Part shown: one piece after another, positions 5,493 to 55,015 of the stretch
How positions within the stretch are numbered: the stretch's first letter is position 1
How the letters are laid out: every line of letters begins with the position of its first letter
Source: Rhynchopus sp. YZ270_cl-10
Lineage: Eukaryota
Direction: 5' to 3'
Length of the DNA stretch: 64,000 nt
NCBI GenBank assembly: GCA_964035575.1
Contig: OZ037834.1
Span: 868,001 to 932,000 of the forward strand
Notes under the pieces: generated by a model
What the model saw: only the letters and a program-made list of their open reading frames with translations
What the model was told of the DNA's origin: nothing
Databases searched by the model: none
Made by a program: the position numbers and the translations under genes

Positions 5493-5564
5493 TGATGAAA
5501 ATATCTTTCAAGTTTTCCTCCCTCCTCCTCCTCCTCCTCCCTCCTCCTCCTCCTCCTCCTCCTC

Positions 5565-5863
5565 TACAGTAAACTTGTTTAAGAAGCTTTGCTTCGACTC
5601 AGGAGTCTTTCAAGATATAGAATGACTAATGCAGCATGCCCCTCATGGGCTTACCACTTACGGTTAGTAAGGTTGGAACGAGGATCGATGGGGAACCCAA
5701 AACACACAAAACACACAAACACACATTCACGAATCAGAATTTTGTCTTTTGCTTCCCCAGTATCGCCCTCTGTACGTACTCCTCTCCTCATCTACGGAAA
5801 AAAGAATCTCCCCCCGCCCCCCTTTTTTAGTTTACTTGTATACTCGTCTTTATCTTGTAAAGA
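5565..5863 (+). mobile_element. Solo terminal-repeat unit, subfamily 2, copy 1
   Basis: 299 bp flanked by (CCT)n. Its start TACAGTAAACTTGTTTAAGAAGCTTTGCTTCGAC resembles the YR-element repeat start CCAGTTAACTTGTTTAAAGCAGCTTTGCTGCGAC. Confidence 0.7.
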
Positions 5864-6049
5864 CTCCTCCTCCTCCTCCTCCTCCTCCTCCTCCTCCTCC
5901 TCCTCCTCCTCCTCCTCCTCCTCCTCCTCCTCCTCCTCCTCCTCCTCCTCCTCCTCCTCCTCCTCCTCCTCCTCCTCCTCCTCCTCCTCCTCCTCCTCCT
6001 CCTCCTCCTCCTCCTCCTCCTCCTCCTCCTCCTCCTCCTCCTCCTCCTC

Positions 6050-6348
6050 TACAGTAAACTTGTTTAAGAAGCTTTGCTTCGACTCAGGAGTCTTTCAAGA
6101 TATAGAATGACTAATGCAGCATGCCCCTCATGGGCTTACCACTTACGGTTAGTAAGGTTGGAACGAGGATCGATGGGGAACCCAAAACACACAAAACACA
6201 CAAACACACATTCACGAATCAGAATTTTGTCTTTTGCTTCCCCAGTATCGCCCTCTGTACGTACTCCTCTCCTCATCTACGGAAAAAAGAATCTCCCCCC
6301 GCCCCCCTTTTTTAGTTTACTTGTATACTCGTCTTTATCTTGTAAAGA
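6050..6348 (+). mobile_element. Solo terminal-repeat unit, subfamily 2, copy 2
   Basis: Essentially identical to 5565-5863 and flanked by (CCT)n. Confidence 0.7.
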
Positions 6349-6382
6349 CTCCTCCTCCTCCTCCTCCTCCTCCTCCTCCTCC

Positions 6383-6680
6383 CCAGTTAACTTGTTTAAA
6401 GCAGCTTTGCTGCGACATGGGGAGATCTGGTGTTTAGTATGAATAAAAATAAAAGCTTTGCCCCATTCATGTTTTTTGTTTTTTTACCACTTTGCATTGC
6501 AAAGGCTGGAAAGGCGAAGGAAAACACCACTCACCTTCATCAGGGAAAAATCTCTGTTTTCGGGTGGTCTCTTTTCCTTCCCTCGTACGTCACAATAAAG
6601 AAACCCCTTCCCTCGCATTTTTTCACGACATTGTTTTTGGGTTTGGGTAATGTTCACGGGCTATTCTCTATACACCAGAT
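6383..6680 (+). mobile_element. Solo A-B repeat of the adjacent YR retroelement (subfamily 1)
   Basis: Near-identical to A2-B2 (11432-11728) and flanked by CTCC/(CCT)n on both sides. Confidence 0.85.
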
Positions 6681-6989
6681 CTCCTCCTCCTCCTCCTCCT
6701 CCTCCTCCTCCTCCTCCTCCTCCTCCTCCTCCTCCTCCTCCTCCTCCTCCTCCTCCTCCCCAGTTAACTTGTTTAAAGCAGCTTTGCTGCGACATGGGGA
6801 GATCTGGTGTTTAGTATGAATAAAAATAAAAGCTTTGCCCCATTCATGTTTTTTGTTTTTTTTACCACTTTGCATTGCAAAGGCTGGAAAGGCGAAGGAA
6901 AACACCACTCACCTTCATCAGGGAAAAATCTCTGTTTTCGGGTGGTCTCTTTTCCTTCCCTCGTACGACACAAAAAAAAAAAAAAAAAA

Positions 6990-8042
6990 ATGGACATGAG
7001 CGAGTTCAAAAATGCACCTTCCAGAATGTTCTGGTTTAAGGTCAGCAACGTGTTGGGAGGGATGTGCAAGGAGGCACCAAACATCGTGAAGGAAAAATTG
7101 GGTTCGGTGAGTCTTCAGGGCAAGTTCGTGTGCGACACCCTGGAGGCTATCTCTTCTTCAGAGGTAGAGTCCTTGACTGTAGAGGCCCTGCGCGAGGTAA
7201 TCGGCGTGGTGACCCGATCGGAGCCTGAGAAGTGGGCGAACACGCCTCCGCGGAGGCTGGCGCTGTTCCTCACGGCAGTGCGGCGTGCAGTGGGAGAAGA
7301 GGCGTTTGAGGGGTTGCTGGCGGACGAGAACAGAGAGGCTTTTCCCTCGTCACCCGATGTAACCTCTCCACAGGCGGCCCACGACACGGAGGAGGAAGCT
7401 GTCGCTGCCGAAGTGTCGAGGAAGCGGTTCACTTTCGCTCCGCGGGCAGACGGGGGGCTACTGCCCGGCAGTGCGGGAGGCGGGGGCCCAGCAGCCGGCG
7501 ACACGTTGGATGCGCAGAGCTTTGGCGGAGGCAGCGACATCGGGGATGATGCGGATGATGCGGGTGTGGATGCGGACGATGTGACCCTGAACCACAAAAG
7601 GTGGCAGGAGTTGGATCGCATCCAGCAGGGTGACTTGCTCGCGAACCTCCGGGGGTACATCCCGACGAGGGACGGTGACGCGAAGGATGCCGCGCACGCT
7701 TCCTGGACACTGATCCAGAAGATCCTCAAGGGGAGGAGTATGGTTGATATCCTCGGTGACTCCTTGGACAACCTGCTCTTCTTCCACTACAGGTTTACCC
7801 TGGGAGTGGAGGCTGCTAAGGCTTTCCGGATGCGCGGCATAGTAGGGTCTACGACCACCCCGACACGCAGGCAGGCTATGCTGGCAGCCGTGGCGGCGAA
7901 CAACACGCACAAGGGCAAGCGATCCTACCAAGGAGGAGGAGGACGCCAGCAACAGAACAAACGCATGCGTTATGACCCGTCGGCGTCGTTCAACACGAAA
8001 GGAGCGGGCAAAGGCAAGAAAGGGGGAGAGAAGGGTTCCTAA
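6990..8042 (+). CDS. Gag-like ORF1 of the YR retroelement (350 aa)
   Basis: First ORF after A1 and a poly-A run, with a basic Gly-rich C-terminus. Assignment is positional; no diagnostic motif recognised. Confidence 0.65.
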   Translation: MDMSEFKNAPSRMFWFKVSNVLGGMCKEAPNIVKEKLGSVSLQGKFVCDTLEAISSSEVESLTVEALREVIGVVTRSEPEKWANTPPRRLALFLTAVRRAVGEEAFEGLLADENREAFPSSPDVTSPQAAHDTEEEAVAAEVSRKRFTFAPRADGGLLPGSAGGGGPAAGDTLDAQSFGGGSDIGDDADDAGVDADDVTLNHKRWQELDRIQQGDLLANLRGYIPTRDGDAKDAAHASWTLIQKILKGRSMVDILGDSLDNLLFFHYRFTLGVEAAKAFRMRGIVGSTTTPTRRQAMLAAVAANNTHKGKRSYQGGGGRQQQNKRMRYDPSASFNTKGAGKGKKGGEKGS

Positions 8043-9534
8043 CTCGGCAGCCTGCCCGAGGCCACCCCTGAACCAGACGAACTACCAGGCGGTGGGCCTT
8101 CGAGACATATGTCTCACAAAGAACAACTACAAGGCGGTGGGCCTTCGAGACGTATGTCTCACAAAGAACAACTACAAGGCAGTGGGCCTTCGAGACGTAT
8201 GTCTCACAAAGAACAACTACAAGGCGGTGGGCCTTCGAGACATATGTCTCACAAAGAACAACTACAAGGCAGTGGGCCTTCGAGACGGATGTCTCAAACA
8301 AACCAATTTCAATTCTCTCAATCAAAACAAGAGCCAAGCGGTGGGCTTTTCTCTCAATGCAAAAAGCAACAAGGCGGTGGGCCGTCGAGACGTATGTCTC
8401 AAACATACCAATTTCAATTCTCTCAATCAAAACGAGAACCAAGCGGTGGGCTTTTCTCTCAATGCAAAAAGCAACAAGGCGGGGGGCCTCCCAGAGGGCA
8501 GCCAGGAGATGCAAACTCCGATGACCCCTCCTCGAGTTTTTCCGCCGCCCTGCTTAGAGCCAGAAACGCTTGGAAAACAATTATCAAAAAAGAAAAAACT
8601 AGCCATCGAGAACAAGGTGTTTGCGGAGAGGGACGGAAAGTCGTTGGGATCGCTGATCCATCACTTGGTGCGCTGGGACGAGCTAGCACAATTTGCGAAG
8701 GCACCAAAAACGATGAGCGAGGAGGACCGGATCTGCACACGTTTTTCGGAGTGGAGGGCGAAGCAACACAGCGGAAGGCCGACGGACGAGCTGATAATAG
8801 AGTACGCCCACAGCATGTTAAATACGACAGCACCCAGCACGGCAAAGAAGTACATGGAGACGTTGGTGCGCGGAGCTCATCGAGAGGGCGTGAAAGGAGT
8901 ACGGACGCGTATGCTGCTGGACGCGAAGAAGGGACTCGCCAGACTGGGGACGATGATCCGTCCAAATCAAGCTCCGGCAATGTCAGCGGCAGATGCGAAG
9001 TCAGCTGTGGAGAAGTTGTGGGATCAGGGATGCAGACCGGCGGCAGCGTTGGCGGCGATCGCTTGGGTCTCTCGTGCACGGATACCCGATTTGAGGTACC
9101 TCACGAAACTGGACTGGAAAGAGTTTCCGTCCAAGACCCCCCAAAACTTGGAGACAGTAGGAGGAGAATTCTTTGCGCGGGAAAAGGGGTGCAAGACGTG
9201 GAAGCCACCGATCAACCTACCGCCGGGGAACATTACGGCGATTGCCGTACGGTTCATGCGCAGCGTAGCCGACGAGAAGGCGCTGGTGTTCGGGGGCTCC
9301 TCAGCCCTGTACGAGAGGTTGAAGCGCGAGCTGAAGAAGGTGTTCCCGCAGGCTTCGTGGCTTCACTCGATGAGACGAGGGGCCATACAGGAGGTGGAGA
9401 AGACAGGAGCGAAGAGGGGCGACTTGCGGGAGCTGTTGAGGCATGCGAGCGAGCAGGAGACGGTGCGATACCTGCGGACGAACACACTAGGGAGACGGAG
9501 GGAGGAAGCGAAGCTGCTGTCTTCGCTGCAATGA
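7972..9534 (+). CDS. Tyrosine recombinase (ORF2)
   Basis: Catalytic signature R (AWVSRARIPDLRYL), HxxR (HSMRRGA), H...Y (LLRHASEQETVRYL). The true start is uncertain. Confidence 0.9.
   Translation: MTRRRRSTRKERAKARKGERRVPNSAACPRPPLNQTNYQAVGLRDICLTKNNYKAVGLRDVCLTKNNYKAVGLRDVCLTKNNYKAVGLRDICLTKNNYKAVGLRDGCLKQTNFNSLNQNKSQAVGFSLNAKSNKAVGRRDVCLKHTNFNSLNQNENQAVGFSLNAKSNKAGGLPEGSQEMQTPMTPPRVFPPPCLEPETLGKQLSKKKKLAIENKVFAERDGKSLGSLIHHLVRWDELAQFAKAPKTMSEEDRICTRFSEWRAKQHSGRPTDELIIEYAHSMLNTTAPSTAKKYMETLVRGAHREGVKGVRTRMLLDAKKGLARLGTMIRPNQAPAMSAADAKSAVEKLWDQGCRPAAALAAIAWVSRARIPDLRYLTKLDWKEFPSKTPQNLETVGGEFFAREKGCKTWKPPINLPPGNITAIAVRFMRSVADEKALVFGGSSALYERLKRELKKVFPQASWLHSMRRGAIQEVEKTGAKRGDLRELLRHASEQETVRYLRTNTLGRRREEAKLLSSLQ
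8080..8490 (+). repeat. In-frame tandem repeats (45-bp x~5, then 105-bp x2) within the overlapping YR and RT frames
   Basis: AACTACAAGGCGGTGGGCCTTCGAGAC.TATGTCTCACAAAGAAC units read as NYKAVGLRDVCLTKN in one frame and GGGPSRRMSHKEQLQ in the other. Confidence 0.9.
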
Positions 9535-11216
9535 TTCGGGGGCTCCAGGAGGACTACGGCGATGAGGCGCACACCAATATCGAGGAATGGAACCCGCCAC
9601 AGTCAGGAGAATGCACTGGTTTGAGCCCGGATATGATGACACCACCTCCACGACAGGCAAAGCTCGACTCTTTCCCCCGAACGACGATATGCGTGGAGCG
9701 GATACGAATACTAGCAGAAGGCGCGGGCATGGACACGACGTTCACGAACTGGATGACGGATCCCAACGCGATTGATGCGGTGCGGAGTGGGTGCATCCCG
9801 TTGCCAGGCCCGAAATCCGACCTCCCACCCTCCTTCATTGCGGCGTGTGTAAGGGCAGGGGTCTGCAAAAAGGTAGGGAGAAACGAACGAGCTCGCGGAG
9901 TGGTGAAGGTATTCACGGTGCCTAAGTCGGACCCCACCGTTCATAGAACCATCATTGACGGCCGACCCATCAATAGAGTCACTCCTAAACCTCCAACGTT
10001 CCACCTCATATCACCCCCTCAGCTATACCACCTGCTTAAAAGAAAAGGCGCTAAGTGGGTAGCAAAAATTGATCTCAAAGGATTTTTTCATCAACTTCCC
10101 ATCCACGACGAAGTGTCCCTCTTCTTCTGTTTCCGCATAGGTCAGACTTGGTACCGGTGGACTCGGGTGCCTATGGGTTGGTCCGTTGCACCGTACATTG
10201 CGCAGAACACGGCTGAAGCGCTAATCGGGACCGCGCTGGGGGTGAGGGCAGTCGTGTACCTGGATGATATACTTCTTTTCGGGGAGACTTCCGCAACCGT
10301 GCAGACATTGTTGACAGAGATTTTGGAGCGTTTTCGTTTTGCCGGGGCGGAGCTGAACTTTGGCAAGTCAGTTCTGAAGCCAGTCTGCGCTCTGGAGTAC
10401 ATCGGTATTATTTGGCACCCGGAGCAGGGCGTGTTTTGTTTTCCGGACTTGTGGATTGCGAAGGTGGAGCACACGTGTGATAGGTTTGCGTCCGCACAGT
10501 CCATGTCGGTACGGACAATATGGCAGATGCTGGGTATTGGGGTTCGAGCCCTGTTCGTGTTAGGTACCCCGTTGTGCCATTACGATGCGATACTTGGTTG
10601 CCTCAGCGGCTGGTCTAGTCTGATTGCAAAGGGTGCGCTTGACTGGGACACGGTGGTGGATATTCCCGGTGAGCTGAAACGGGAAGTGACGCGTCTTGTC
10701 GATGACTTTGTGCGTCCAGGATGTCGATTCTCCCTGCCGGAACCTGCAACAGAATGGGACTCCGTGGTGTGGACGGATGCGTGCACGACGGGGTGGGGCG
10801 CAGTGTGGCAGCATCTGGAGGACGCCACAGCGAGAGCCGATTGGGGGCAGTGGAACTGTGCGGCCACACACAGACACATCTTTCTTCTTGAAGCGGAAGC
10901 GGCAGCAAAGGGCATAAGGGCGGTGCTTCATGAAGAAAAAACTGAGAAGGGGGTGTTGCTGTTGGTGGATAATAAGGGTTTGGCGGGCGCCATCAAACGC
11001 GGACATTCTAAGTCACGCTTGGGTAATTTCTTTTTACGCTATATTTTTTCGTTTGTGCAACCACACCACCTCCGTGTAGAATGGATTGCCTCGGAAGAGA
11101 ATCACACAGCAGACGAGCTCTCTCGACGCAAAAGTGACTCTGACGGCACTCTTACGGTCCCGCTGTGTTGGGATCGTGTTCACGAGAAGGTTGGTAGTTT
11201 TGGTTTTTCAGAGTGA
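8109..11216 (+). CDS. Reverse transcriptase / RNase H (ORF3); the conserved part lies downstream of ATG 9531
   Basis: RT motifs KIDLKGFFHQL, VPMGWSVAP and YLDD; DIRS-type RNase H motifs WTDACTTGWG, HIFLLEAEAA, LLVDN and WIASEENHTADELSR. Confidence 0.95.
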   Translation: MSHKEQLQGGGPSRRMSHKEQLQGSGPSRRMSHKEQLQGGGPSRHMSHKEQLQGSGPSRRMSQTNQFQFSQSKQEPSGGLFSQCKKQQGGGPSRRMSQTYQFQFSQSKREPSGGLFSQCKKQQGGGPPRGQPGDANSDDPSSSFSAALLRARNAWKTIIKKEKTSHREQGVCGEGRKVVGIADPSLGALGRASTICEGTKNDERGGPDLHTFFGVEGEATQRKADGRADNRVRPQHVKYDSTQHGKEVHGDVGARSSSRGRERSTDAYAAGREEGTRQTGDDDPSKSSSGNVSGRCEVSCGEVVGSGMQTGGSVGGDRLGLSCTDTRFEVPHETGLERVSVQDPPKLGDSRRRILCAGKGVQDVEATDQPTAGEHYGDCRTVHAQRSRREGAGVRGLLSPVREVEARAEEGVPAGFVASLDETRGHTGGGEDRSEEGRLAGAVEACERAGDGAIPADEHTRETEGGSEAAVFAAMIRGLQEDYGDEAHTNIEEWNPPQSGECTGLSPDMMTPPPRQAKLDSFPRTTICVERIRILAEGAGMDTTFTNWMTDPNAIDAVRSGCIPLPGPKSDLPPSFIAACVRAGVCKKVGRNERARGVVKVFTVPKSDPTVHRTIIDGRPINRVTPKPPTFHLISPPQLYHLLKRKGAKWVAKIDLKGFFHQLPIHDEVSLFFCFRIGQTWYRWTRVPMGWSVAPYIAQNTAEALIGTALGVRAVVYLDDILLFGETSATVQTLLTEILERFRFAGAELNFGKSVLKPVCALEYIGIIWHPEQGVFCFPDLWIAKVEHTCDRFASAQSMSVRTIWQMLGIGVRALFVLGTPLCHYDAILGCLSGWSSLIAKGALDWDTVVDIPGELKREVTRLVDDFVRPGCRFSLPEPATEWDSVVWTDACTTGWGAVWQHLEDATARADWGQWNCAATHRHIFLLEAEAAAKGIRAVLHEEKTEKGVLLLVDNKGLAGAIKRGHSKSRLGNFFLRYIFSFVQPHHLRVEWIASEENHTADELSRRKSDSDGTLTVPLCWDRVHEKVGSFGFSE

Positions 11217-13178
11217 TATGTTGTTGTTGTTGTTGATTTCTGTTTTTGCGTTGGGGAGGTGGTGTGATGGTACACGTCAGGGTGGATTTAATGGTCCAAA
11301 GCGGCATATGGTCTCTTTTCCTTCCCTCGTACGTCACAATAAAGAAACCCCTTCCCTCGCATTTTTTCACGACATTGTTTTTGGGTTTGGGTAATGTTCA
11401 CGGGCTATTCTCTATACACCAGATCTCCTCCCCAGTTAACTTGTTTAAAGCAGCTTTGCTGCGACATGGGGAGATCTGGTGTTTAGTATGAATAAAAATA
11501 AAAGCTTTGCCCCATTCATGTTTTTTGTTTTTTTACCACTTTGCATTGCAAAGGCTGGAAAGGCGAAGGAAAACACCACTCACCTTCATCAGGAAAAATC
11601 TCTGTTTTCGGGTGGTCTCTTTTCCTTCCCTCGTACGTCACAATAAAGAAACCCCTTCCCTCGCATTTTTTCACGACATTGTTTTTGGGTTTGGGTAATG
11701 TTCACGGGCTATTCTCTATACACCAGATCTCCTCCTCCTCCTCCTCCTCCTCCTCCTCCTCCTCCTCCTCCTCCTCCTCCTCCTCCTCCTCCTCCTCCTC
11801 CTCCTCCTCCTCCTCCTCCTCCTCCTCTGCCTCTCTCCTCCCTCCCCCTCTTTCCCTTCATCACCAGCACCTATCCACCCGCTTGGGATCGTATTGCATT
11901 TTTTTTCTTCAACGTCTTCGTTTTCCCCTCAGAGAGTAGTACCCTGGAGGGAGATCAGATTTAGCGAACTGATTTGTATGGGTTTTTGTGTGGGAGGGGA
12001 TGGGGGGGTTATTATGAAAATGTGTGCCTTATTGTCATCCGAGATGAGGAAAAGAATGCTGTGAAAAAAAAAGGCCGCAAATATTGTGGTCAAGAAGAAG
12101 GTGCGCTCTCACTCAAAAAAATGATTGTGTTCGCGCTTTCAACCAAAAAAAAGTTGCTCCTATATTTTTTGAAAACTTGGGTTGTGTTGCCAAGAGGGAA
12201 AAAAAAATCCCGCAAAAAAACGTTGGTGAGGCTGAAGGGAGGGGGGGGTGATTCGCACTTCTGGCGCACTTTCTTGCGCATTTTTTTTCACCCCATACCA
12301 AAAAAATTTCGAGGGCTGATTCGCACTTTTTGCGTCCCCCCTCCCATTCAACCACACTAACAGTGCTATCAAGTGTAGAACGTGGAAACAAGCTCCCGGA
12401 AAACAGGTGCGTGAGCCTCGGGTAACATGCAAAAAAAGGATGTGTAACCACAATGTGAGGCATAATCATCTCAGCCTTGATTTTGTTTTTCTTTTTAAAT
12501 ACTGCGTCGCTGCCGAGTCTTTTGGTTCTTCTTTTTGTACGTTTTTTTTGGATTTGTTCTGTTTTTTTTATTATCGATTTACGATAGTTTTACATTCTTC
12601 TCCCTCTGTGTGTTGTGTTGTTGTGTCTCTTATACGTTCGTAGACACGCTGCTATTGGATGTGCATGCAGACGTGGGTGCAGTTAATTTATGTTCAGTGC
12701 CAGGTGGTCGAACGTCCAACTTCTCCCTGTGTCGTGCCGGTGACGATTTAGAAAAAAAATAATATTCAGGCAAACAAAAAAAAAGAAGTGGAGCACACTC
12801 TAGTGTGGCTGCACATAACCAAGTTTTCAAAACAAAACAAAAAACATAACAGTACAGTAGAGTGATAGTATTCGAGTCATGGAATAAAAAAAAGACACCC
12901 CCGCGTTTTTTTTATCCCGAATTTAATCGGGTATTATTCGGAGAAACTCAAGGAATTTTTTTTGTTCAGCATTTTTTGTCTCGTCTCTGCCACATTCACC
13001 TAGTCAGGCTTCTGAGGTAGTGGGTTGCTTGCAGCATAATACAGCACAATATGTGCAATGCTTGGCTCTGGAACCATCCACATTTGCTTTCAAGCACATC
13101 ATATCACAGACGCAGGAATTACCCCCACAACTGATATCAAACACAAACACCCGACAGATTAAACATAACTCTACACAG

Positions 13179-13964
13179 ATGCTCTCCGTTCTAGTGGTGA
13201 CCCTGGTGCTGCACGCTGCCAGCGAGACTATCGAACTCGCAGAGAAAGGTGTCGTGGACCGCTTGCTGCCGTACGCGTCGGAGGACACCGTGTGGTCGGT
13301 GCAGTGTGACGGCGTGTTCAGGATACATTATCAGAACTGGTTTGAAGGCGTCTTCATCATCGCACGCAACGGGGAGGAATGGGACAGGACCACAGGCGAC
13401 AACAACAGGCGGTCTAGACCATTCGAGCAGACCATCGTTCAGGGGTACGTCATCACGTTGACGGCACGTGTGTCGCCGTCTCATCACAACAAAGTGCTCT
13501 TCTCGTGGGCCTGCGGCGCTACACCTGCACTGCTTCCAGCAACAATGAACACTGCTGGGGATGTGGTCCACATGAACTACGAGGCTGGGGAGAATGTGAC
13601 CTGGGCGCTGCCCTGCGACGGAAAAGTGGACATCACGTGGACGTACTTTGACACAGAAGAAGGAGAAGATGTCGTCAGCATCGGAAGCAACGGCGCAGTG
13701 TTCAACGAGTCTGGCTCCAGCATGCCTGCACCGAACACCTATTATTCTTCGTACTTTCATTGGGCGTACCTCACCTTCACCAGCGAAACTGCTCGCGAAG
13801 GTGGAGGTTTTGCCTTGCGCTACCACTGCCTGTCCACTCCGGTCACTCCGTTCGAAATGTCCCCTCCACGTAATCATGAAAGAGTTCCTGTCAGCCTCAT
13901 TGTGTCCCTGTTCGGAGGTTTTGTGTTTGGTCTTGTGGTTGTGGTGGCTGCGTGTGTATGTTAA
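13179..13964 (+). pseudogene. Small CUB-like single-pass membrane protein, copy 1; a 2-nt insertion after the TM segment removes the cytoplasmic tail
   Basis: Highly similar to 34096-34971; reads TGT-TA-ATTGCG where the paralog reads TGC-ATTGCG, creating a TAA. May still encode a truncated protein. Confidence 0.7.
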
Positions 13965-14625
13965 TTGCGTCAAGGTGTCACGCAAAAGTAAAGAGACCCG
14001 ACCAAGACTGCGAGCTCGGCACCACCTCGGGTTGAGTTCCATTGTGTGAAAGACAGCGCAACACTTTAAGGGCGTCATTTCTGCATTTCATTTTTACCAA
14101 ACAATTCAAAGATGTGAATGCAAAGTAATGTTGATTTTTTTTTTCAACGTTTCTTTTCTTTGTTTTTACTCGTATATTTTCTGACCACCTTCACCAGTTT
14201 CATCTGACCACCTTCACATCACCAACACGTCCCGAGGCAGTGTTGGTGGCCATCCCCACAGGCAAATCTACGTGGTGCGCCATTGCGGCTGTGTTTGGTT
14301 TACCTCAAGCCTGCATTTCCGTATTATGTCGTGTCCCCTACTCATGTTAGATTTTATCTGTCATGATTGTTTTGCTGAATTTTTCAAGATGTATGTGTGC
14401 ACGACAGAGGCACATTCATCTTGGCACGTTTTCTTTTGTCACGAGAGGGCTTTGTATTTCAAGTCAACTTTTGTTTGTTCAGCATTGCACCCAATCGACA
14501 CTTGCCTATCGAGGTAGATTTGTGACACACACAATCGTCGCCCGAAGGTATTGTATTTTAATTTTTGTTGTTTTGCTGTTCTCTCTTTGTGTGCATCCTG
14601 TGTTCACAAAAAGAGAACACATTTA

Positions 14626-14741
14626 CCGCAATCGTAAAAATTTTGGACCGTATAATACTTGGACCGTAAAAATTCTGGAACTTTTTGGGGTTTTTGGCAA
14701 ACTGTAACATTTTTTACGGTCCACAATTTTTACGATTACGG
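14626..14741. mobile_element. 116-bp Tc1/mariner-pogo-like MITE with TA TSD
   Basis: TIRs CCG.AATCGTAAAAATT with TA on both sides. The empty site (GAACACATTTA|TTGCTTTT) is present in the paralogous block at ~19881-19900. Confidence 0.85.
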
Positions 14742-14869
14742 TATTGCTTTTTTCGCTACTTCAAAACCAACCTTTGATTTTCAAAATAATGCATAATATA
14801 TTTTCCAACTGGCCACCAAATGTTTTTCACAACAGAAACAGGATATTTTATTTCTTCAAGTACAAAAAA

Positions 14870-15070
14870 CACGGGTTGCCTACGATCGTAGTACGATCTC
14901 TTACGATCGCAGCTCTTTTTTGATCGCACTACGATCGTACTACGATCAAAGTACGATCGTAGTACGATCGTACTTACGATCGTATTATGATCGTACGATC
15001 GTACTACGATCGTAACGATCGTAGTACGATCGTAATGATCGTAGTACGATCGTAGTACGATCGTACGATC
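14870..15070. repeat. CACGG terminus followed by a (TACGATCG/GTAC) palindromic array; probable end of a DNA transposon
   Basis: CACGGGTTGCC is followed by ~190 bp of TACGATCGTAG-type units. The adjacent 15095-15290 is the inverted homolog of ~27100-27290 and ~30830-31000. Confidence 0.65.
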
Positions 15071-17163
15071 TTCCTTCTAAGGTGCTCGCTCTCCATACCT
15101 AGACCCTCGAATTTTTTTTTTTTGCCCCTATATTGGGCTAATTTCGACGATTTGAGGCCATTAAAAGCAAAATTTGGCACTTTTGAGCATCTAGGGGGGT
15201 CTAAAACGCGGTTCCGCGAACCCAAAATTTCGTGATTTTTACCAAAAACAAGTCGATTTTTGAAAAAATCTCAAAAAAAAAAAATCCCAATTTTTTTTTT
15301 TTCACAAGTGTTTTTGAGGCCTGCTCACTACACCCTAGGTACCCTTCTGGGACCAAAAAGTCAAAAAAAGCAAGAATTGGGCTGTTTTGAGCATCTAGAG
15401 TTAATTCCCCAGTCATTTTCTGTACCACCAGTGCATTTTGTATGGGCCAGCGCCTTGTCAAAAAATCAAAAAATCTCAAAAAACATAGGGTGAAAACGAT
15501 CGTTTTTTTTTTGTACTCAGGTAGCTACGTAGCCTTCAGGGAGGCAATCGTGTGCTAATACAGAAAGTATCAGTCAAGGCTGTCCTTACAGACGCATGCC
15601 AAAGCGGCCGCCACATGGGTGTGGACTTAAGATTGTTTTTTTTTTTTTTTTTTTTTTACGAATCTGGGAAAAAGTGATCGGTCTTTTTTTTTTTTTTTTT
15701 TTTTTCACGATCGTGAAGAAAAAAAAACGATCGTTTTTTTTTTTTTTTTTTCTTCACGATCGTGAAAAAAAAGCACCTTTTTCTTCACGATCGTGAAGGA
15801 AAAAAAAAACGATCGTTTTTTTTTTCCCATATTATGTCGTTGATCGCTGGCCCACACCAGGGAGGGAGCCCCCACAGGTGCCCACAACCCCCCTGAAATC
15901 GGCCGAGAGTAACTTTTAGCGGTGTTTTGACGTAAAATGTCACCTTTTTTGCCATTTTTGGGGTGTACTTTTCTGGAACAAAATTCGCAAAACCCGAAAT
16001 ACGAATCGTAAAAAATCGCGACATTCTATGACATGCGTATACCATGAAGCAGCACGTCACGGCATGGCATGTAACATGCACATGTAATATCGCCAAAAAC
16101 CTAGTCGTAGTAACATCATCACTGTGCAAACCCCTGTCCATCCAATACAATTCACACTCTTTGTGGGTGGTCTTGCTGCCTTTTTGCCACAGTAATTTTT
16201 GGCCCGGCAGGCATGCTCTTGAAGCATGGCAATTTAGTGTGTATGGGGCAGGGTGTTGTTTTGTTCTGAATTCCCTTTGTTACAATATCTATCCAATCGC
16301 GAGTGGTTGTATGTGTATCGTGAGACACTCTTTTTAACCCTTTACGGACCAAGAGGACATTTATGCCCATTGTGGCGGGGGATGCGGCGTTCAACACCAG
16401 GCCAAGTTGGCCAAAAGCCCAACTTTTGTACTGTCCAACCTCTGTACAATTACGGTATATTTCGTTGGCTGGTGGTCTGAAGAGTGATCTGACCATATTC
16501 TCCAGGTATAACAAATGCCCAAATAATGCATTGGCGAAGGAATTTTGCACTTTTGACCATCACACATTACTTGTATTTTTACCGGTTTTTTAATGAGTAC
16601 AACCTATGTCAGAGCACGCTGTCCCACAGATTTTAGAATTTGGGGGGGTCACGCAACAGGGATTACGCAGCTCCCCATACTTATCGCTAAATATGCCGTT
16701 TTCCCCGAAAAATTTTAGAATTCCACGCCCAATTTCTTTCTTTTTGGCAAAAAAAAATTTTTCGCGCTTCGCGCGAAAAAGGTCCTCAGAAGCTCAATTC
16801 CGGAAACAAATACGGGGGGAGCGACGTTTTCCAACTCCTCCGCCATCAGCAGGAACACCTCCGTTTTCTCTTGAATCTGGGACGCTTGTTGCTGAGAAAC
16901 AGGGCAACAGCGCGTTCAAGCATATTCCCCATCTTTTCAGTGTTAAACTCGTGGCGAAGCCACGGTACGCAACATTTCTAAAAATTGCGCTTAAAATTGC
17001 CTACTATGTCGCGGGAAGGGTGGGTTGAAAGCTCGCGCCGCAGTGCATCTTCCTTTTCCGGTAAAATAGAAGAAAATTGTCTTCTAAAAATAGAATTCTG
17101 TGGGGGGTAGGTGAGAGGTGGGCGGAGCCCCCACTCCTCCACCCCAGCCTCAATCCAAAACCC

Positions 17164-17195
<32 letters not shown>

Positions 17196-18941
17196 ATTAA
17201 TAATCTGTATTCTGTAACCTCTCTCTATTTTACGGCAGGTGTGACCGGTTGAGGTGATACTTCCGGACTGAGGAAGGGCATTCTTTTACTTTTTTTTCTG
17301 TTTTTTTTGGTATTTTTTGAGCTGAGATTTTCAAAAAATACCAAAAATACCAGGGTCAACCGCTGTGATGCTCATTGTTTAGAACACAGGGCTATTTCTA
17401 AATATGGGGTCCGGAGTCCAAAATCCAATCCGGGACACAATTTTGGCAGATTTATTTTGGGCCAAAAACGTCTTTATTTACATTTTTGGGATTCGCCCGT
17501 GCAGTGGTGGGGTCAATCTCGAAAATTGGATTTTTTGACCACTTAAATTTTGAGAAATATGAGCCCGGTCACTTATACGTGGGCCCATTTTCGGCTAAAA
17601 TTTTCCTCAAAATCCGGGTTTGTAAAATTGACCCTTCTGTGAAGGAAGGTTGTGGAAAAGGGTCCTTATTTGCATTTTTGGAAGCCGCCCGTGCAGTGGT
17701 GGGGTCAATTTGCAGAATTGGGCAAGTTCTTGCAAGACAACGGGTAATGTTTGTTAGCTCTAAGGAGGGAAGGGGAGCGTTTGTAGCTCACACAGCACCC
17801 CAAACCCTGGCCTCTCTGTCCACAGCACACAGCTCTTCCCCTGAGTTCCATTTGTGCCTCAACATGCTGAGCGCATCTTCAGTACGATGGGTGGATGAGC
17901 GAGAAGAGGCGCAACTGGCTAGTTGCACCAAAGCTGCACAAGCTTGTGGTCGTAGCACGCAGTTTGCGCGAGAGCAAGCCGCCACAAGAGAATGGTTGGT
18001 GGGATGAGGAGAAGCTGGTGCAGGAGGAGAAGGAGCGTGCGGGAGCTATATTGACTGCGACGCGACAGCTGAGGACCCCAAGGTTGATGATGATGCTGAG
18101 CATCACGACTCTGACATCAGTGAAGGCTCTTGGGACTAAACGCATACAGTCTTGTCCGTACCCATTTCTCCCACACAAGTCACCACCCCCTTGTGACTTG
18201 CCTGTAACAGTGGAAACGTTTCCCTCCCAGCCGCAAACCCGTTCAGTGTATCGTGAGCCACTGCAGTGACCCACTCACGCTCGACCCTGTCCCTCCTTGT
18301 AAACAGTTCGCCTTCTCCTACGTTGTGCTAAGGAAAACCAAAAAACATGCTCAAAAATGATGGGCACGGGGGTCAGACTCCACTTCTGACCACTTAAAAT
18401 TAGGTCATACACGTGTTATACCCCAAACTGACCAAGAAATTTTCCCAGTGTTCGATGGTGATCGAATTAAATCGGTGGTAAAAAGTGAAAAATGGGGCAT
18501 GCCAGGCCCACGTCAATCAGCCTAAAAATGTTGCAACTTTAAACGCGCGTCTCTCCCGTACACCAATATACACTTTTTAACACACACAGTACAGCAAGGG
18601 AAAACCAAGGGATTTTACCCTGTGTTCTCCTTGTTACGGCTGCACTAACCTAATCATCAAAACTGCTCGATTTTGGCTTTATCTAAAAGATCGACATCAA
18701 TTCTTACGAAATATAATTTATTTTACGATTTTGAGTAGAATTCTGTTTGCAGGGCGAAGTCACGAGGCAGGGGGTGATTTTGGGGGTGAGCGCCAAAAAA
18801 AGTCCTTTTCCTAGGGTTGACCCACCTCCCTCCAGCATCCAACGATATGACATTTTCACGAAAGTTGTCGATTCTTGCCTTATTATTGTCACACAGAAAA
18901 AAAATGTTTTTACGAAAAAAATTCAGTGTAACTCACTGGCA

Positions 18942-19268
18942 TCTGGCTCCAACATCCCTGCACCGAGGACCTATTATTATTCTTACTTTCATTGGGCGTA
19001 CCTCACCTTCACCAGCGAAACTGCTCGCGAAGGTGGAGGTTTTGCCTTGCGCTACGACTGCCTGTCCACTCCGGTCACTCCGTTCGTAATGTCACCTCCG
19101 CGTGACGGAGTTCCTGTTAGCTACATTGTGACCATAGTTGTAAGTTTTGTGTTCGGTCTTGGGGTTGTGGTGGCTGCATGTGTGTTCATTGCGTCAAGGT
19201 GTCACGCAGAACGCAAGAGTCCCGACCAAGACTGCGAGCTCGGTACCACCATGAGCTCCATTATGTGA
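18942..19268 (+). pseudogene. 3' fragment of the small CUB-TM gene (5' part replaced by repeat DNA)
   Basis: YFHWAYLTFTSETAREGGGFALRY.CLSTPVTPF...TM matches copy 1; homology of the 3' flank continues to ~20000. Confidence 0.8.
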
Positions 19269-20190
19269 ACACACACTTTATGTGCTATATTTCCGAACGC
19301 TTGCGACACGCCGCATCTGATACTAACCACACAAAGACACGCCGATGTGTCCAGTGCCCCGTCATTTCTGCATTTTATTTTACCATTTCAAAGATGTGAA
19401 TGCAAAGTAATATTGATGTTTTTTTCAACCTTTCTTTTCTTTGTTAACTCGTATATTTTCTGACCTCCAGTTTCATCTGACCACCTTCACATCACCAACA
19501 CGTCCCGAAGCAGTGTTGGTGGCCAAACAAATCTAAGTGGTGCGCCATTGCGGCTGTGTTTGGTTTACCTCAAGCCTGCATTTCCGTATTATGGTCGTGT
19601 CCCCCTATTCATGTTAGATTTTATCTGTCATGACTTTTTGCTAGATTTTTCAAGATGTGTGTGTGCACGACAGAGGCACATTCATCTTTACATATTTTCT
19701 TTTGTCACGAGAGGGCTTTGTATTTCAAGTCAACTTTTGTTTGTTCAGCATTGTACCCAATCGACACTTGCCTATCGAGGTAGATTTGTGACACACACAA
19801 TCGTCGCCCGAAGGCATTGTGTTTAAATTTTTGTTGTTTTGCTGTTCTCTCTTTGTGTGCATCCTGTTTTCACAAAAAGAGAACACATTTATTGCTTTTT
19901 TTGCAACTCCAAAACCAACCTTTGGTTTTTGAAATAATGTTTTCCAACTGGCCACCAAATGTTTTTCACAACGAGAAACATGAGATTTTAATTTTTTTTT
20001 TCAAGGAGGAAAAAAAAAAGTACATTCATTTCGAGCCACAATACAGTCGGGAATCACTGTGTGTCCTTCTCCTCCTTCTCCTCCTTTCCCTTCTCCTTCA
20101 GATGTGTCCGTCGTTTCAGGGACAACACGCTGTCCCTCTACATTGCTACAGGTTTACAAGCAACAACACACCAACAGGAAAACAACACAA

Positions 20191-21647
20191 ATGCCAAAAT
20201 ACAACAAGATGTGGAAGGCACTCCGAATGTGCAGTACAAACGCATCCAGCACATCGAATGTGGCCGAAACTGTTAATATGTTTGGTTTTGCTGCCAACAG
20301 GGTTACTGCATTTGTCGGTTTCATCGTATCGGCGGGTGGAGCGTACGCGGTCTACACACGAAGTCAACACCACCTCGACCGGACGCTGCGGACGATTGTA
20401 ATGGAAGAATACGTGCCCGAAGTTGCACCAACTGAATACATTACGAGAATACAAGAAAAGGAACTGAAGGAGAAGTTGGAGAAGAACATTGCCGGAAAGG
20501 GAAAGTTCTTCATGTTGATGGGTGAGAGCGGCTCAGGCAAAACCACGATGATGCAACACATACTCACAGACTACGAGAAAGGTGTGATCTTCGTCAAGAT
20601 CAATACAACTGACTTGCTCAAGGCGGGTAACGGAGAGACAGGGGAGGTGCTTAAAGCGGCTGTGCTCGACAAATTCAAAGGGTGTGCGAATCACCCCCGT
20701 AGACATCCTTCCTTTACGGACTTCATCAGACACGCGAACCAAGGTCCGGTTGAAGGAGGTCAAGAAGCCTGGGGGGAAGGAGAAGGATCACCCGCTGATT
20801 CTCTACATCACTCTGGACAGCAAGGATGATAAGCTCTCTTACCAGCTGATGACGGATATTGCCAAGTCATTCGGTGTCTTGGCCAGCGATCTTTCATCTG
20901 AGAACTGTTGCAGGACAATCCTCGAATTCCCCAAAACAGAAATCTCGGACAAGATCATAGACCTCCGTGGTGGCTGGGACAGTTTCCAAGTAGATGCAAT
21001 GACAGAGGACGAGTTTAAGAAAATTGGGAAACAGGTGTTGGACGTGAAGGATCCTCAGCTCCTTGTTGAGGAGCTTCTCTCATACTATCGCAACTGGTTG
21101 GGGGGGGCACACAAAGAATTTATCGGCGTTAGCTTCTCTTGCAACAACGAATACAAGTATGAACAGTTGCCTTTGTTACCTTTTTTGTACAATTGCTATT
21201 CACCACACATCTCATCGCAGTTGAGTCTGCCACCCCCGAAACAAGGAAGAAGATTTTGACGGAGCTGAAGGCGGGTATGTTGTTGTTGGGGTGGGTAGTT
21301 TGTCAATTATGAGACACATGTATTGCACAGGGATCGACACGGAGTTCGAGGCTTCTGTAAAACAACTTGGCAGAGAACACCCTAAAGCAATCAAGCTGTT
21401 GACAGCAATCGCTGCGACTGGAGTCAAAGGTTTGTATACTGATGACCTGCACGAAAGCGACATCATGAGCGAGTTGATTAATCGCGACTCAAGCTCGACC
21501 CTGCTCCGCAAAGTAGATAAGAACAAAGTGAGGATATACCGCTACTCTCACGCGCTTTTCCTGCATGGTATGAAGGAGCCAAATGACAAAGTGCAGAATA
21601 CCGACGACGTGAAGAAGAAGTTCGGGATGAACGCCAAATCTGCTTGA
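20191..21647 (+). pseudogene. Membrane-anchored P-loop NTPase (AAA/STAND-like), three exons, one frameshift near 20740
   Basis: N-terminal hydrophobic helix and Walker A GESGSGKTT. Exons 20191-21156, 21246-21274 and 21331-21647 have phase-compatible GT-AG introns; the frame switches at AAC-C-AAG. Confidence 0.7.
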
Positions 21648-21690
21648 TTGATGATTTGGGTGTGTGGTAAGAATTGTGAATATATTTAAA

Positions 21691-24452
21691 GAGAAAAGTT
21701 CGATTTCGGCCTCGAAAATACCCGTGACACCGATTTGTCACGGTACTTTGTCACGGAATTTTTTTGAAAGATTCGATTTCGTGACAAAAAAAAATCGATT
21801 TCGTGACAAGCCGATTTTTTCATTGACACACAAAATTCAATTTAGTGACAAATGACTTTTTTCATTGACAAAAAAAAATTCGATTTCGTGACAAATCCAT
21901 TTTTTTCTCATATGAAAAAAAGTACTCTGAGAGATTCGTTAAGGATTCGTATGACATAATATTAACTTTTTGTCAGCGGTGTGGCAAAAAGTGAAATTGT
22001 GTTTTTAGCCTAAAAATGGGTGGGGGAGATGTAAAAAGTACTTTTATTTTTACTTTTTGTCACACTTGATCTGCCTTTGTTTTTGGTGGGATTTTGGCTT
22101 GGTGTGGCAAAATGTTGTGGTCTTCATGCCCAGGTCATATCCTGCTACATATTTCTCGGCATTGTGTTGGGAGTTGTGTTCAATATAATTTATGCCTTAC
22201 GAATACTTATCGATCTCTCAGAGTACTTTTTTTTATATAGAGAAAAAATTATATATTGAGTAAAAAGCGGACGTGTCACACTCGTGTGGTTCTCACAAAT
22301 CAGTTGGTTTTTTGTATCACTCGCTTCGCTCGTGATACAAAATTCTATGTCACACTCGCTTCGCTCGTGAGACAACATAAATTACGTCACTCGCTTCGCT
22401 CGTGACGTAAAAGAACCAACTGATTTGTGAGAACCACACTCGTGTGACAAAAAGTCCACTTTTTTTCACCTCAATAAATAGCTATTTCATTGACAAAAAA
22501 ATGTCATTGAAAAAAATGGAATTTGTCAAGGAAAAAGTCGTGACAGCCAACCCGCCAGTCACTGAAAAGTGACCAGACAGCCACTTGACAAACACAAAAG
22601 AGGCCATTCTTGAGCTGTCTAGAAACCGAAGGGCAGAGACTGAAGACACAAGGTATGATAACTTTATGATTATGCAAGACTTAGTATATCGCGAACACGG
22701 TCAGGCTTGCACGCCTCTGGCCAGAGGCCAGCCCCACTAAATGATATGCAGCAGACACTCATTGCAGATTTCATTTTCATTCGGTAAAAAATTAATGGGT
22801 GCGCACGTTTCTATACCTAATACCCCAACCCTCACCCATACATTCCATTACACACACCAAAACAGATCGAATCCACCAGCGCATGCGACGGAAGCAGATT
22901 CAGATTGTGGTTTGATAAGCAGAGTTCGGTTATTATGGTGGTGGAAAGGGGGGTGGGAACACTTTGTCAGTCACTGCTATAGCCATTAACCAGGGAGCAT
23001 AGCTAGTGCAAGAAATTCGACTTTGGAAACCTTCCGGAAAGTCTGTCCTCTGCTTCCGGAGGACTAGACACAAGAAAATATTGTTTGTTCCCCCAGAAAA
23101 CCAGTGCACAATTCACACTCCTTGTGGGTGGTCTTGTTGCCTTTTCGTCATAGTAATTTTGGCCCAGGCATGTTCTTGAAGCATGACAATTTAGTGTGTA
23201 TGGGGCAGGGTGTTGTTTTGTTCTGAATTCTCTTTGTTATAACATCTAAGTCAATCGCGGGTGGTGGTTTGTGTAGCGTGAGGCACTCTTTTTAACAAAC
23301 TTCCTGCAGTTGCTATGCACTGTTATTTCTTCGGATTTATCATCATACAGCGTAACATAGTGGATTCGCCTGGTCGACACAACCTTTGATAGATATGGGA
23401 TAACCAACCCCCTTCGACCCCTCGTGGGTTCACTGAACAAGCCCTAGTGGTAGTTAAACGCGATTGACATTTACATTCCTAGAGATGAAAGAACAAGATA
23501 ACACTTCTGTACCCGCGCATCAAAATTGTGGAAAACTTTGCACCCCAAACACCCTCAACAACGCCCGCCAAAAGGCGCCCCTTGTTGCTGGGAGTTGGTT
23601 CTCATGTTTGATACACTGCACAGCAGGCATTCCTCCTGAGTCCAACGCATGTTTGGCCTGTCTGCGGCGTTGTACTTAAGGTGCACGAAGACAGGGTCTG
23701 GTGGTAAATTTTGCGTAGTACTGCGACGTGGTACTACGTGGGTCTGGGAACCTGGTACCTGGGTACAGGATATTTGTTGTAAAGACATCTTCCACCATGC
23801 ATTGAGGAGGGTAAGACAGTGTTCGCAGTTTCTACCTGATAGCATTACACATTTAACTTCTCCACGGGGGTCTTGGGCCGTTCATTCGGTTATACCTTGA
23901 CTACCGGAAGATATTCTTGAGGCCTTTTTGGTCTCTAGAATATCCGGTCTTCCCGAACGGAGGCACACTTTGTGTGTTACTACGACCTGGCAATTTCCAG
24001 CAGTAGGTTAAGTAATCTTTCTTGTAAATTGTTGGATCATTATCTCCTCAGTGCATGCATGCCCCACGTGACTGGACACTTTTGTGTTTGTCATGTGGAG
24101 CTGTGGTTGCTCTTTCACGACTTTTATCCTTGTGTCCAGTGTACCCAGTACCCAGTGCCCTGTCACGACTTTTTCCTTGACAAAAAGTTCGGTTTCCTTG
24201 ACAAAATCCATTTTTTCATTGACATTTTTTTGTCACTGAATTTTTGGATTTGTCACGAAATCGAATTTTTTTTGTCAATGAAAAAATTGGTTTGTCACGA
24301 AATCGAATTTTGTGTGTCAATGAAAAAATTGGTTTGTCACGAAATCGATTTTTTTTTGTCACGAAATCGAATCTTTCAAAAAAATTCCGTGACAAAGTAC
24401 CGTGACAAATCGGTGTCACGGTAATTTTCGAGGCCGAAATCGAACTTTTCTC
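21691..24452. mobile_element. Non-autonomous Mutator-like element: ~210-bp TIRs and 9-bp TSD
   Basis: TIRs GAGAAAAGTTCGATTTCGGCCTCGAAAA contain TTCGTGACAAA repeats; TSD ATATTTAAA at 21682-21690 and 24453-24461. No transposase ORF. Confidence 0.85.
22254..22476. mobile_element. MITE-like foldback element with three internal CACTCGCTTCGCTCGTG hairpins
   Basis: Outer arms TGTCACACTCGTGTGGTTCTCACAAATCAGTTGGTT and their complement enclose three stems. Confidence 0.75.
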
Positions 24453-24534
24453 ATATTTAAACTTTTGTGAGTATTTTTTATTTTTAGTTTATTGTGGAGG
24501 TACCCTAACTGTTCGGTCCAATTCGGTGTAATTC

Positions 24535-28359: not shown

Positions 28360-28404
<45 letters not shown>

Positions 28405-28498
28405 CAAAAAAAATGCAAAAATCGGGTGTTTTGACCATCTGTGGTTACACAAAACACACTTCTGTGTACAAGCCTACACCAATACAGTGGTAATACAA

Positions 28499-53500: not shown

Positions 53501-55015
53501 ACGCGTGTGTTCGACAGCTTTGACGGGTTTGACGTGCGTCTCTTCACCTCACGTGGTGAGAAGGAGAAGCGCACCATCCTCAGCAGGTTCATCCAGTCCG
53601 ACGACGTCATCTCCATCATCGCTGCCTACAACGAGGTGCAGATGAAGAGCCTCTTCTCGTACATCAAGAGCAACCCTGCCTTCAGGAAGTTCAGCGATCC
53701 CGAGGAATCCGACCACGACTCAGATGGGGTATGTAATAGGTGTATAGGTGCAAATAAGTTAAGTCAAAAATCCTGAAAAAATCATTTTTGTGTATAGGAC
53801 TGCTTGGGAGGGGTGTGTCCACCCCACCAACCACCAAGATGTACGAGAGGCCCATTTCATCTTACAAATTTTCTTTTGCAAAACAGTCGGCCTGCGTCCT
53901 GGAACGGTGAGACGTTTGCACTTTCAACTTCTTCTCTTTCTTTGTAGTGAGACATCTGACATCAAAAAGATACACCAAAACCCCACCATTTTGGCCCATG
54001 TTCTGCGCAAGAATCAGTCCATGAATTATCAACCAAACCCTTAACCACACACACACAGGACCGCTCCGACGCAGGCTCCTCTGCTGCCAGCAGTGTCGGC
54101 TCTGACGCTGGCGACCCACGTCTGGCAGAAGTCGACGTACCTACGGGTGAAGGGTTTGTTCTCTACCCCCCTCTGCACCCTCTGCACCCTCTGCTCCCCA
54201 GTTAACTTGTTAAAGCAGCTTTGCTGCGACATGGGGAGATCTGGTGTTACTGTAGATGATAGTATAAGATGCTTTGGTCCATTTTTGCTTTTATTACCTC
54301 TTTGCTCTGCAAAGGTTGGAACGGGAAAGACAAAACACACCACCTTCATCAGGAATTTTTCCACAAATTTGTTTCCCCGGTGTGTTTTCCTTCCCTCGTA
54401 CGTCACAATAAACGAAACCCCTCCTCACATTGTTTTTGTTGCGCTTTCAGGACCTCATCGACGGATCACTATTTGTACACCAGATCTCCACCCTCTGCAC
54501 CCCCTCCACCCCTGCCTACCACCTTTCTCTTAACACCACACCCCAACAGAGAGAAGACAGAGAAGCCCCGCAACCCACATGCATCTCCGCATGCAAGGAG
54601 CGGGCCGCGTGGGCAGCAGCAGCAGCACCAGGCGTCGTCCTCCGCCTCCGCCTTTGCCACCACAAAGCGTTCTGCCTTCGGTGCGCCCCCTGCAGACACC
54701 GAACCGCCACGTCCGTCACGGCGTGCGACGATAACGGAAGACCTCCAAGCCACGCCGCTGACGCAGCACACAGCAAAGCAGCTCTCCTCGGATGGTGGGG
54801 GCACAGAGCCGGGGGAGCTGGGGGCAGGGGTCTCGCCGAGGGGGAGCGATGTGGCTACTGACGGACCAGGGGGAGAGGTGGTGGGGGAAAAGGAAAGTGT
54901 GGAGAAGGAGAAGGAGAAGGAGAAGGAGAAGGAGGGCCCCGTGGAGGAAGGTGACGGTGGTGCTGGACCATCAGGCGGAGGAGCAGAGGGCGCGAAAGAG
55001 GAAGACAAGGCGTGA
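47582..55015 (+). CDS. ~2235-aa SLOG (LSDAT/TRPM-type) + two SLATT (DUF4231-like) 2TM domains + long helical C-terminus; exons 47582-53728, 54059-54153, 54550-55015
   Basis: SLOG-like CSHHILV...VVGVLVGG...NRWPFLIIEGSGGYADMLA; SLATT-like KWVSLKSCAEGLLSEIYMYRTRSGAY and YADLRLTPKINAY...WVALTTAVGSAL...KYTTVMHELESVESWW; introns are phase-compatible GT-AG. Confidence 0.8.
54198..54485 (+). mobile_element. Diverged solo A-B repeat of the YR retroelement within intron 2 of the SLOG-SLATT gene
   Basis: Same termini (CCAGTTAACTTG...ACACCAGAT) and internal CCCTCGTACGTCACAATAAA; CTCC on both flanks within a (CCTCTGCAC)-type repeat. Confidence 0.85.

Follow-up and report, generated by a model that had tools for sequence, protein, structure and literature searches.

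The closest described relatives of the element reported here are VIPER of Trypanosoma cruzi and TATE of Leishmania braziliensis and other kinetoplastids. In the portions of the published accounts considered here and throughout this text, both combine split direct repeats (A1 / B1-A2-B2) with the order gag, then tyrosine recombinase (YR), then reverse transcriptase/RNase H (RT/RH), and SIRE, the short form of VIPER, corresponds to A2-B2; whether SIRE moves is raised there as an open question (PMC6681497). TATE inserts precisely into telomeric hexamers, where it forms tandem clusters and leaves a TT duplication (PMC2696322). In DIRS-1 an internal complementary region (ICR) is essential and the cDNA is mostly linear and single-stranded (PMC7192593), and reviews treat the ICR and split repeats as marks of two separate classes of YR elements. 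Folded single-stranded recombination substrates have been described for the integron attC site (PMC3458562) and the CTX phage attP site (PMC3442271). In diplonemids, TATE-like open reading frames (ORFs) have been mentioned, undescribed (PMC10161547). Here we analyse a full-length split-repeat YR retrotransposon and its solo units in a 64-kb stretch of Rhynchopus sp. YZ270_cl-10 DNA (assembly GCA_964035575.1, contig OZ037834.1, positions 868,001 to 932,000), which is called the window below. It represents a well-preserved new family of a known kind, and its repeat targeting extends what TATE shows. We assign a probability of about two in three (0.68) to the reading that this is an intact, likely recent VIPER/TATE-like element, which recombines its B/A junction with C-rich repeats and whose predicted fold-back holds or rebuilds the joined ends. 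The co-varying junction stem is probably the part that a specialist would find new.

Element, array and affinity

The TCC tract at 5516-11827 is interrupted by two subfamily-2 solos, one subfamily-1 solo and one full element, all in a single orientation, and a further unit lies at 54195. These features are listed below, with unit coordinates counted from the likely crossover.

5516..5562, + strand: left (TCC)n tract with one 1-base irregularity
5563..5867, + strand: s2a, subfamily-2 solo A-B unit; internal complement of its own B end from 5602
5868..6047, + strand: (TCC)60 spacer, in phase
6048..6352, + strand: s2b, subfamily-2 solo A-B unit, identical to s2a; unit type present in public contigs
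6353..6379, + strand: (TCC)9 spacer
6380..6684, + strand: s1, subfamily-1 solo A-B unit
6685..6756, + strand: (TCC)24 spacer
6757..11732, + strand: full-length split-direct-repeat YR retrotransposon, A1-gag-YR-RT/RH-B1-A2-B2, 4,976 bp
6757..6966, + strand: A1 repeat
6990..8042, + strand: gag-like ORF, 350 amino acids (aa)
7846..9534, + strand: tyrosine recombinase frame
8080..8488, + strand: 45-bp and 105-bp tandem repeats within two overlapping open frames
8109..11216, + strand: RT/RNase H ORF, 1035 aa from the first ATG, overlapping the YR frame
11309..11428, + strand: B1 repeat, terminal sequence AGATCTCC
11416..11482, + strand: predicted fold-back spanning the junction
11425..11431, + strand: B1/A2 junction 7-mer CTCCTCC, a perfect (CCT)n match
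11429..11732, + strand: A2-B2 repeat, of the same form as the solos
11733..11827, + strand: right (TCC)n tract
54169..54194, + strand: CCCTCTGCA 9-mer tandem, left part; split by the s3 unit and resuming at 54490
54195..54489, + strand: s3, subfamily-3 solo A-B unit

Sequence comparison reproduced the anatomy given in the first-pass annotation, in which four same-orientation units split one (CCT)n array, the B1-A2 junction reads AGAT-CTCCTCC-CCAG and a fifth unit (54195) has CTCC at both sides. Four units are indeed present, but they need not be four independent insertions, as s2a and s2b are identical over 299/299 bases and may represent one insertion and its duplication. The s1 solo differs from A2-B2 by one base, and the s3 solo, 77% alike to s1 over 252 columns, defines a third subfamily. 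The stretches of TCC repeat between and around the units are 47, 180, 27, 72 and 95 bases long. The inner spacers (180, 27 and 72 bases) are multiples of 3, so the repeat phase was maintained at every insertion, in agreement with the earlier proposal that insertion preserves the target. A 25-base pyrimidine tract forms the overlap of A and B and is present three times in the element (at the end of A1, at the start of B1 and in the middle of A2-B2). The overlap lies just upstream of the gag-like start, and in two copies (6942-6990 and 11309-11345) the tract is followed by AG, as in a trans-splice acceptor, a candidate role here that is known for SIRE.

The element body and both unit types were found in contigs of 4/4 public runs (3 studies), and one public contig carries (TCC)n, A1 and gag in that order, which indicates that the parts of the array are real. 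No contig of the four runs bridges the whole array, and unit number and order are therefore those of this assembly only. Together with the adjacent identical units and the homopolymer differences among A copies, this would fit an array whose assembly at the microsatellite is partly in error, with a duplicated s2 and wrong spacer lengths. Such an artefact appears very unlikely, given spacers that are unequal in length yet in phase and the recurrence of the unit types and of the (TCC)n-A1-gag join in independent runs.

All three element frames are open, and RT proteins of the same cluster are 99.5-100% alike in 15/15 comparisons (four RT clusters). The clusters suggest at least four autonomous families. 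In run X1, contig depth was 88-102 for unique sequence, 544-593 for the element body and 3,176 for one subfamily-2 contig, from which about 5-7 full copies and about 30 subfamily-2 units can be roughly estimated, depth being a poor measure of copy number. Intact frames, near-identical copies and a copy number of this order bear out the recent activity that had been suggested. Loose ends at 10735 and 11155 show that the same public runs also contain a sister family, which matches P0004. A further contig of 982 bases, present at single-copy depth (X1 record 3, also X3 and X5), derives from a related subfamily by internal deletion; it aligns over 7716-11666, with joints 7822-8065, 8142-9044 and 9324-11641. 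Position 8521 is A in the window and G in all four runs; either the assembly is in error there or the A is a private variant.

The first frame (350 aa) had no Pfam match and no CCHC box was seen in it; it is called gag-like by position only. The YR frame, numbered from the ATG at 8509, contains the residues R191, K226, H286, R289, H312 and Y321. A full HMMER scan yielded 44 YR relatives and a word-indexed protein search none; 19 of the 41 aligned relatives match the Pfam family Phage_integrase. Among solved structures the YR profile matched Cre best (E 7e-11), and the alignment pairs the catalytic arginines, the histidine and the tyrosine. The fold obtained from the single sequence was poor (predicted local distance difference test, pLDDT, 43.9) and was therefore replaced by an alignment-based model (pLDDT 92.7), against which Cre chains ranked 1-14 with template modelling (TM) scores of 0.65-0.75. 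The recombinase is predicted to fold like Cre, with its catalytic residues intact. The RT/RNase H ORF matches RVT_1 (E 5e-22) and has YLDD at 10257; acidic motifs of RNase H were recognized by eye at 10770, 10887, 10965 and 11109, and protein-atlas neighbours, which are mostly from Euglenozoa, carry RT_RNaseH.

Named proteins among 20 YR relatives included TATE and hypothetical proteins from Diplonema papillatum, as well as proteins from Diplonema ambulator and Rhynchopus euleeides; the cluster named TATE in D. papillatum shares 32% identity. The eIF2A encoded in the window has its best matches in EukProt, one of them at 63% under the label Rhum, which would denote a Rhynchopus species; together these relatives point to a diplonemid host. 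A quick RT tree, built without named VIPER/TATE rows, sets the element apart from two fish DIRS-type RTs. Searched with the RT alignment, 42 candidate stretches of viral contigs contained no relative, and a DNA pattern of the shared left end gave 0 matches in metagenome contigs. RT with RNase H and a tyrosine recombinase instead of a DDE integrase place the element in the order DIRS, and within it the order gag-like, YR, RT/RH with a YR-RT overlap and the split direct repeats A1 / B1-A2-B2 are those of VIPER/TATE. A VIPER/TATE-like lineage, as first proposed, is supported by the layout, the predicted Cre-like YR, a relative named TATE and the Euglenozoa neighbours.

With TATE (PMC6681497, PMC2696322) the element shares ORF order, split direct repeats, precise insertion into a simple repeat and tandem clusters. 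TATE proper inserts into a telomeric hexamer with a TT duplication, whereas the readable sites here are interstitial and C-rich and the match to them is relaxed; the sections of these papers considered report no fold-back junction for TATE. VIPER/SIRE (PMC6681497, PMC12278014) is alike in the similar size of A1 / B1-A2-B2, the overlapping YR/RT frames and the abundance of A-B solos. It differs in that these accounts, in the parts considered, give it no simple-repeat target or junction structure, while three subfamilies occupy one target type here, and in the CCHC box, which the gag-like frame here does not show. VIPER/SIRE leaves no target duplication; in our element the duplication would amount to 0-1 common base under the 7-mer parse set out below and to 4 under the core parse. 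Ngaro and PAT (PMC8547959, PMC13465315) have the same repeat layout and solo AB repeats. In contrast to our element, in which YR precedes the RT domain, Ngaro has RT/RH in ORF2 upstream of YR; its solos are seen as remnants. Both Ngaro and PAT, as split-repeat elements, are described in these sources without an internal complementary region.

Fold-back at the B/A junction

Repeat A carries, about 40 bases in, a reverse complement of the B end that takes in CTCC. In subfamily 1 the B end is predicted to pair with 11470-11482 in A2, forming a stem with a 3-base bulge at the 7-mer and two small loop hairpins. Folded as DNA, the B1/A2 junction reaches -20 kcal/mol (z -5.86, 0/200 shuffles as good), and the RNA fold has the same z. 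This is the strongest fold of 98 segments scanned along the element, and the stem is its sole perfect short-range inverted repeat of at least 10 bases. Joins within a subfamily gain 11.1, 5.1 and 10.8 kcal/mol (0, 4 and 0 of 387 controls as good), compared with just 0.0 and 1.8 kcal/mol for subfamily-swapped joins. The arms of subfamily 2 differ in sequence yet still pair, each subfamily pairing only with its own B end, and the small loop hairpin shows a two-sided change. When three units were aligned with MAFFT, RNAalifold recovered the long stem with subfamily 2 one base off register, and an anchored comparison was therefore used. Inverted arms around the 7-mer in the duplex, as in loxP, were looked for and are absent in this element. 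Rfam gave 0 matches within the window.

The junction fold-back likely guides copying and insertion of the element. A role like that of the ICR is a tentative proposal with somewhat less than an even chance, and the absence of any role is hardly credible. DIRS-1 (PMC7192593) is alike in having an internal complement to its joined ends, a YR and a short junction motif matching the target. It differs in that its terminal repeats are inverted and its ICR, 88 bases long, is close to the right end; the repeats here are direct, and the complement, of 13-19 bases, folds locally and is placed within A, about 40 bases in from the left end.

The same arrangement was sought in 33 distant metagenome loci, four of which (L021, L012, L020 and L011) hold A1 with its flank as well as A2, so that the junction was fixed beforehand. 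Pairing of the B end across the boundary outperforms 406/406, 395/395 and 443/443 control 30-mers on the + strand in L021, L012 and L020, respectively; on the minus strand of L012, 3/395 controls are as good. When the same A is joined to genomic flank, folding is ordinary (z -0.5, -0.5, -1.8 and +0.4). When 16 locus tails were scanned blindly, 6 had z below -3.5, some of them off known junctions, and only the pre-set junction positions were therefore counted. Two further features of these loci were observed: in L020 (1075-1118), three tandem copies of a 14-base repeat, partly like the junction of L020 itself, stand before A1, and the single contig of L012 (241-8381) contains two distinct YR-like + RT elements arranged head to tail.

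A simpler hairpin, located downstream of RT, is common to five loci of the nearest sister clade; in it, 93% of 75 cells are paired and 5/15 pairs have changed on both sides. Compared with shuffles, it stands at 0/500 on percentage paired and on covariation score and at 51/500 on a stricter pair count. Two contigs end in the left arm of this hairpin, which suggests that the junction lies there; in these hairpins a loxP-like arm pair is indistinguishable from a fold-back. G-T pairs exceed A-C pairs 6 to 1 (about four independent changes), pointing weakly to the sense strand. This sense-strand-only excess would suit a fold-back that works in RNA, through self-priming, a template-jump pause or processing, with integration proceeding via an ordinary double-stranded circle. 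The RNA fold of the junction is as exceptional as the DNA fold, and a 3' hairpin has been proposed as the primer of DIRS-1 reverse transcription (quoted in PMC7192593). However, G-T is also tolerated in sense-strand DNA, the stems in the window consist of plain Watson-Crick pairs that form equally well on either strand, and the crossover point lies at the centre of the stem, a placement unneeded for an RNA function. A role in RNA in place of the joined DNA ends seems rather doubtful to us.

Target sites and a proposed route of integration

Eight sites are readable, namely four in the tract, 54195 and three from public contigs, whose flanks are those among the matches listed (24 of 138 and 22 of 187 loose-end rows). 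Among these matches, all eight sites are C-rich on the sense strand of the unit, and three are not (CCT)n. The public-contig sites show a CCTCCA hexamer on the right (X1, X3) and, in X6, one C-rich left flank that is no repeat and one left flank of (TCC)n, the latter possibly at the locus of A1. (CCT)n is the best but not the sole target. The proposed targeting of CCT repeats stands where the in-phase tract insertions are concerned and fails as an exclusive rule, because the CCCTCTGCA 9-mer, the CCTCCA hexamer and a non-repeat C-rich flank are also used. The tract comprises 421 of about 57,800 non-element bases, and the chance that at least 2 of 3 independent insertions (one per subfamily) fall there is about 2e-4, by hand arithmetic and in a window that was noticed because of this array. 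Microsatellite-targeting non-LTR (long terminal repeat) retrotransposons (PMC4640811) have similar simple-repeat landing sites, and differ in their endonuclease-primed insertion.

A lack of any true preference would explain the tract by one or two insertions, unequal crossing-over and microsatellite growth from CTCCTCC, with the flanks reflecting survival in intergenic pyrimidine tracts. The identity of s2a and s2b agrees with this, as does the position of the s1 solo, which adjoins its parent and is a possible recombination remnant; Ngaro solo AB repeats have been explained as such remnants (PMC8547959), and 17/20 long ORFs of the window lie on the strand of the units, so that orientation may be selected. 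Nevertheless, two subfamilies that are alike only at their ends occupy one tract, three further sites match the 7-mer at 5-6/7 bases where readable, and the distant relative L020 also lies in a tandem repeat. On balance, insertion without preference is improbable.

At 54195 the left flank ends in CTGC-TCC and the right flank starts with CTCC-ACC. If the s3 unit is excised together with exactly 7 junction bases, the host 9-mer is back in four tandem copies; excision around a CTCC core yields two, along with one that is interrupted. The crossover is therefore likely to lie at the middle C of the 7-mer, the flanking CTCC being mostly element-borne, and from the sequence of these flanks we moderately favour a one-base crossover over a CTCC core. 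The earlier view that this unit narrows the core to CTCC consequently has a competing parse, which is the more parsimonious one at this site (4 vs 2 restored 9-mers). Public contigs cross the 54195 junctions without differences, but reach only 18-30 bases into the unit (below the 31-base rule).

With a CTCC core, the circle junction would carry one copy that recombines with a target CTCC and is left on both sides, and the 7-base spacer would be two overlapping cores. The listed right ends of other copies all reach or pass CTCC and 3/4 of the listed left ends begin there; the subfamily-1 complement matches the B end, CTCC and the A start over 16 bases with no bulge; and insertions of DIRS and TATE duplicate a short core (PMC7192593; TT for TATE, PMC2696322). 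Yet the only junction present in sequence has 7 bases, neither placement of the core gives both 54195 flanks, the 9-mer array is left interrupted, and in subfamily 2 the pairing of the complement extends as far as base five of the 7-mer. We regard the four-base core as rather unlikely.

With the favoured one-base crossover, the most likely route of movement would be as follows. The transcript would be reverse-transcribed, and the thrice-present 25-base A/B overlap would permit template jumps, giving rise to a full circle or to a mini-circle of B/A only, the likely source of some solos. The fold-back would act like the internal complementary region of DIRS, fixing the junction exactly in a single-stranded stage. 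The recombinase would then cross over at the middle C of the 7-mer, the element leaving TCC on the left and CTCC on the right, and the near matches CTCCACC and CTGCACC would also serve as targets. In (CCT)n each side would again end up with a perfect 7-mer after this crossover; the tract would thus stay usable and arrays could build up.

By analogy, VIPER-like elements might even integrate as a folded single strand, the stem providing the recombinase with its double-stranded site, a single strand being exchanged at the bulge with any loosely matching C-rich repeat and replication resolving the product; this we consider unlikely. As in integron attC and CTX attP, a stem bulged at the crossover would lead to a single strand exchange without duplication; those systems are bacterial, and cleavage of a folded strand by the YR here is hypothetical. 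If such integration occurs, the 300-bp solos would be self-contained mobile cassettes, and the stem would be a family-wide signature predicting the target of each family.

Several points weigh against the reading of a VIPER/TATE-like element that recombines a folded B/A junction with C-rich repeats. The flank evidence consists of eight sites, five of them inside the window, and one public site may be the locus of A1 itself. No empty allele of the 54195 site was found among the matches listed in the four public runs, one diverged copy aligned only from 54197 (X1 record 3) and may miss the left-end CTC, and four shorter CCT/AGG runs in the window carry no unit. The perfect 16-base match of the subfamily-1 complement is to a junction with a single CTCC, in favour of the core. 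Among the relatives, L011 (A copies 87% alike) passes weakly, with 7/419 controls as good, and other segments of L021 and L012 fold as strongly as the junctions, so that the evidence there lies in position and not in strength alone. The single YR sequence had no Pfam match, and the RT tree included no kinetoplastid VIPER or TATE sequence. Finally, we infer all four steps of the proposed route, including the circular and single-stranded stages.

Neighbouring sequence and meaning for the family

Elsewhere in the window, a longer CUB-like protein is encoded upstream of the array (73-2460), and paralogous genes for membrane-anchored proteins, 95-99% alike, lie 21 kb apart at 13179-13964 and 34096-34971. 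The gene-poor region 14600-31400 contains nested inverted-repeat pairs (21691/24452, 17241/28283, 23033/25615 and 15102/27280), CCAGATCTGG decamer arrays and one ACAGGTAC array, and looks like stacked non-autonomous DNA transposons. A 2,064-aa ORF at 47582-53776 has SLATT_1, DUF4231 and weak SLOG (LSDAT) matches, in a eukaryote; these domains are typical of prokaryotic nucleotide-signalling defence. Two short motifs (53876-53939 and 55162-55198, about 35-60 bases with T-run flanks) have a summed contig depth of about 100,000, compared with about 100 for unique sequence, and are therefore very high-copy dispersed repeats. A similar motif is present at 5136.

A literature search that covered neither supplements nor the founding Ngaro, PAT and SIRE papers found no (CCT)n-targeting YR element and no fold-back at a split-repeat junction, and the terms "hairpin" and "secondary structure" occur 0 times in the text of PMC6681497 considered here. 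How split-repeat YR elements rebuild their ends and integrate is not worked out in the literature examined. The co-varying junction fold-back is a concrete part to mutate and rescue, which makes the route of replication and integration directly testable, and the family offers for this an intact multi-copy element and a defined 7-base target. The fold-back also links the two structural classes of YR elements, those with an ICR and those with split repeats. A recombinase that writes into microsatellites without consuming the site would explain the repeat-embedded arrays in these genomes.

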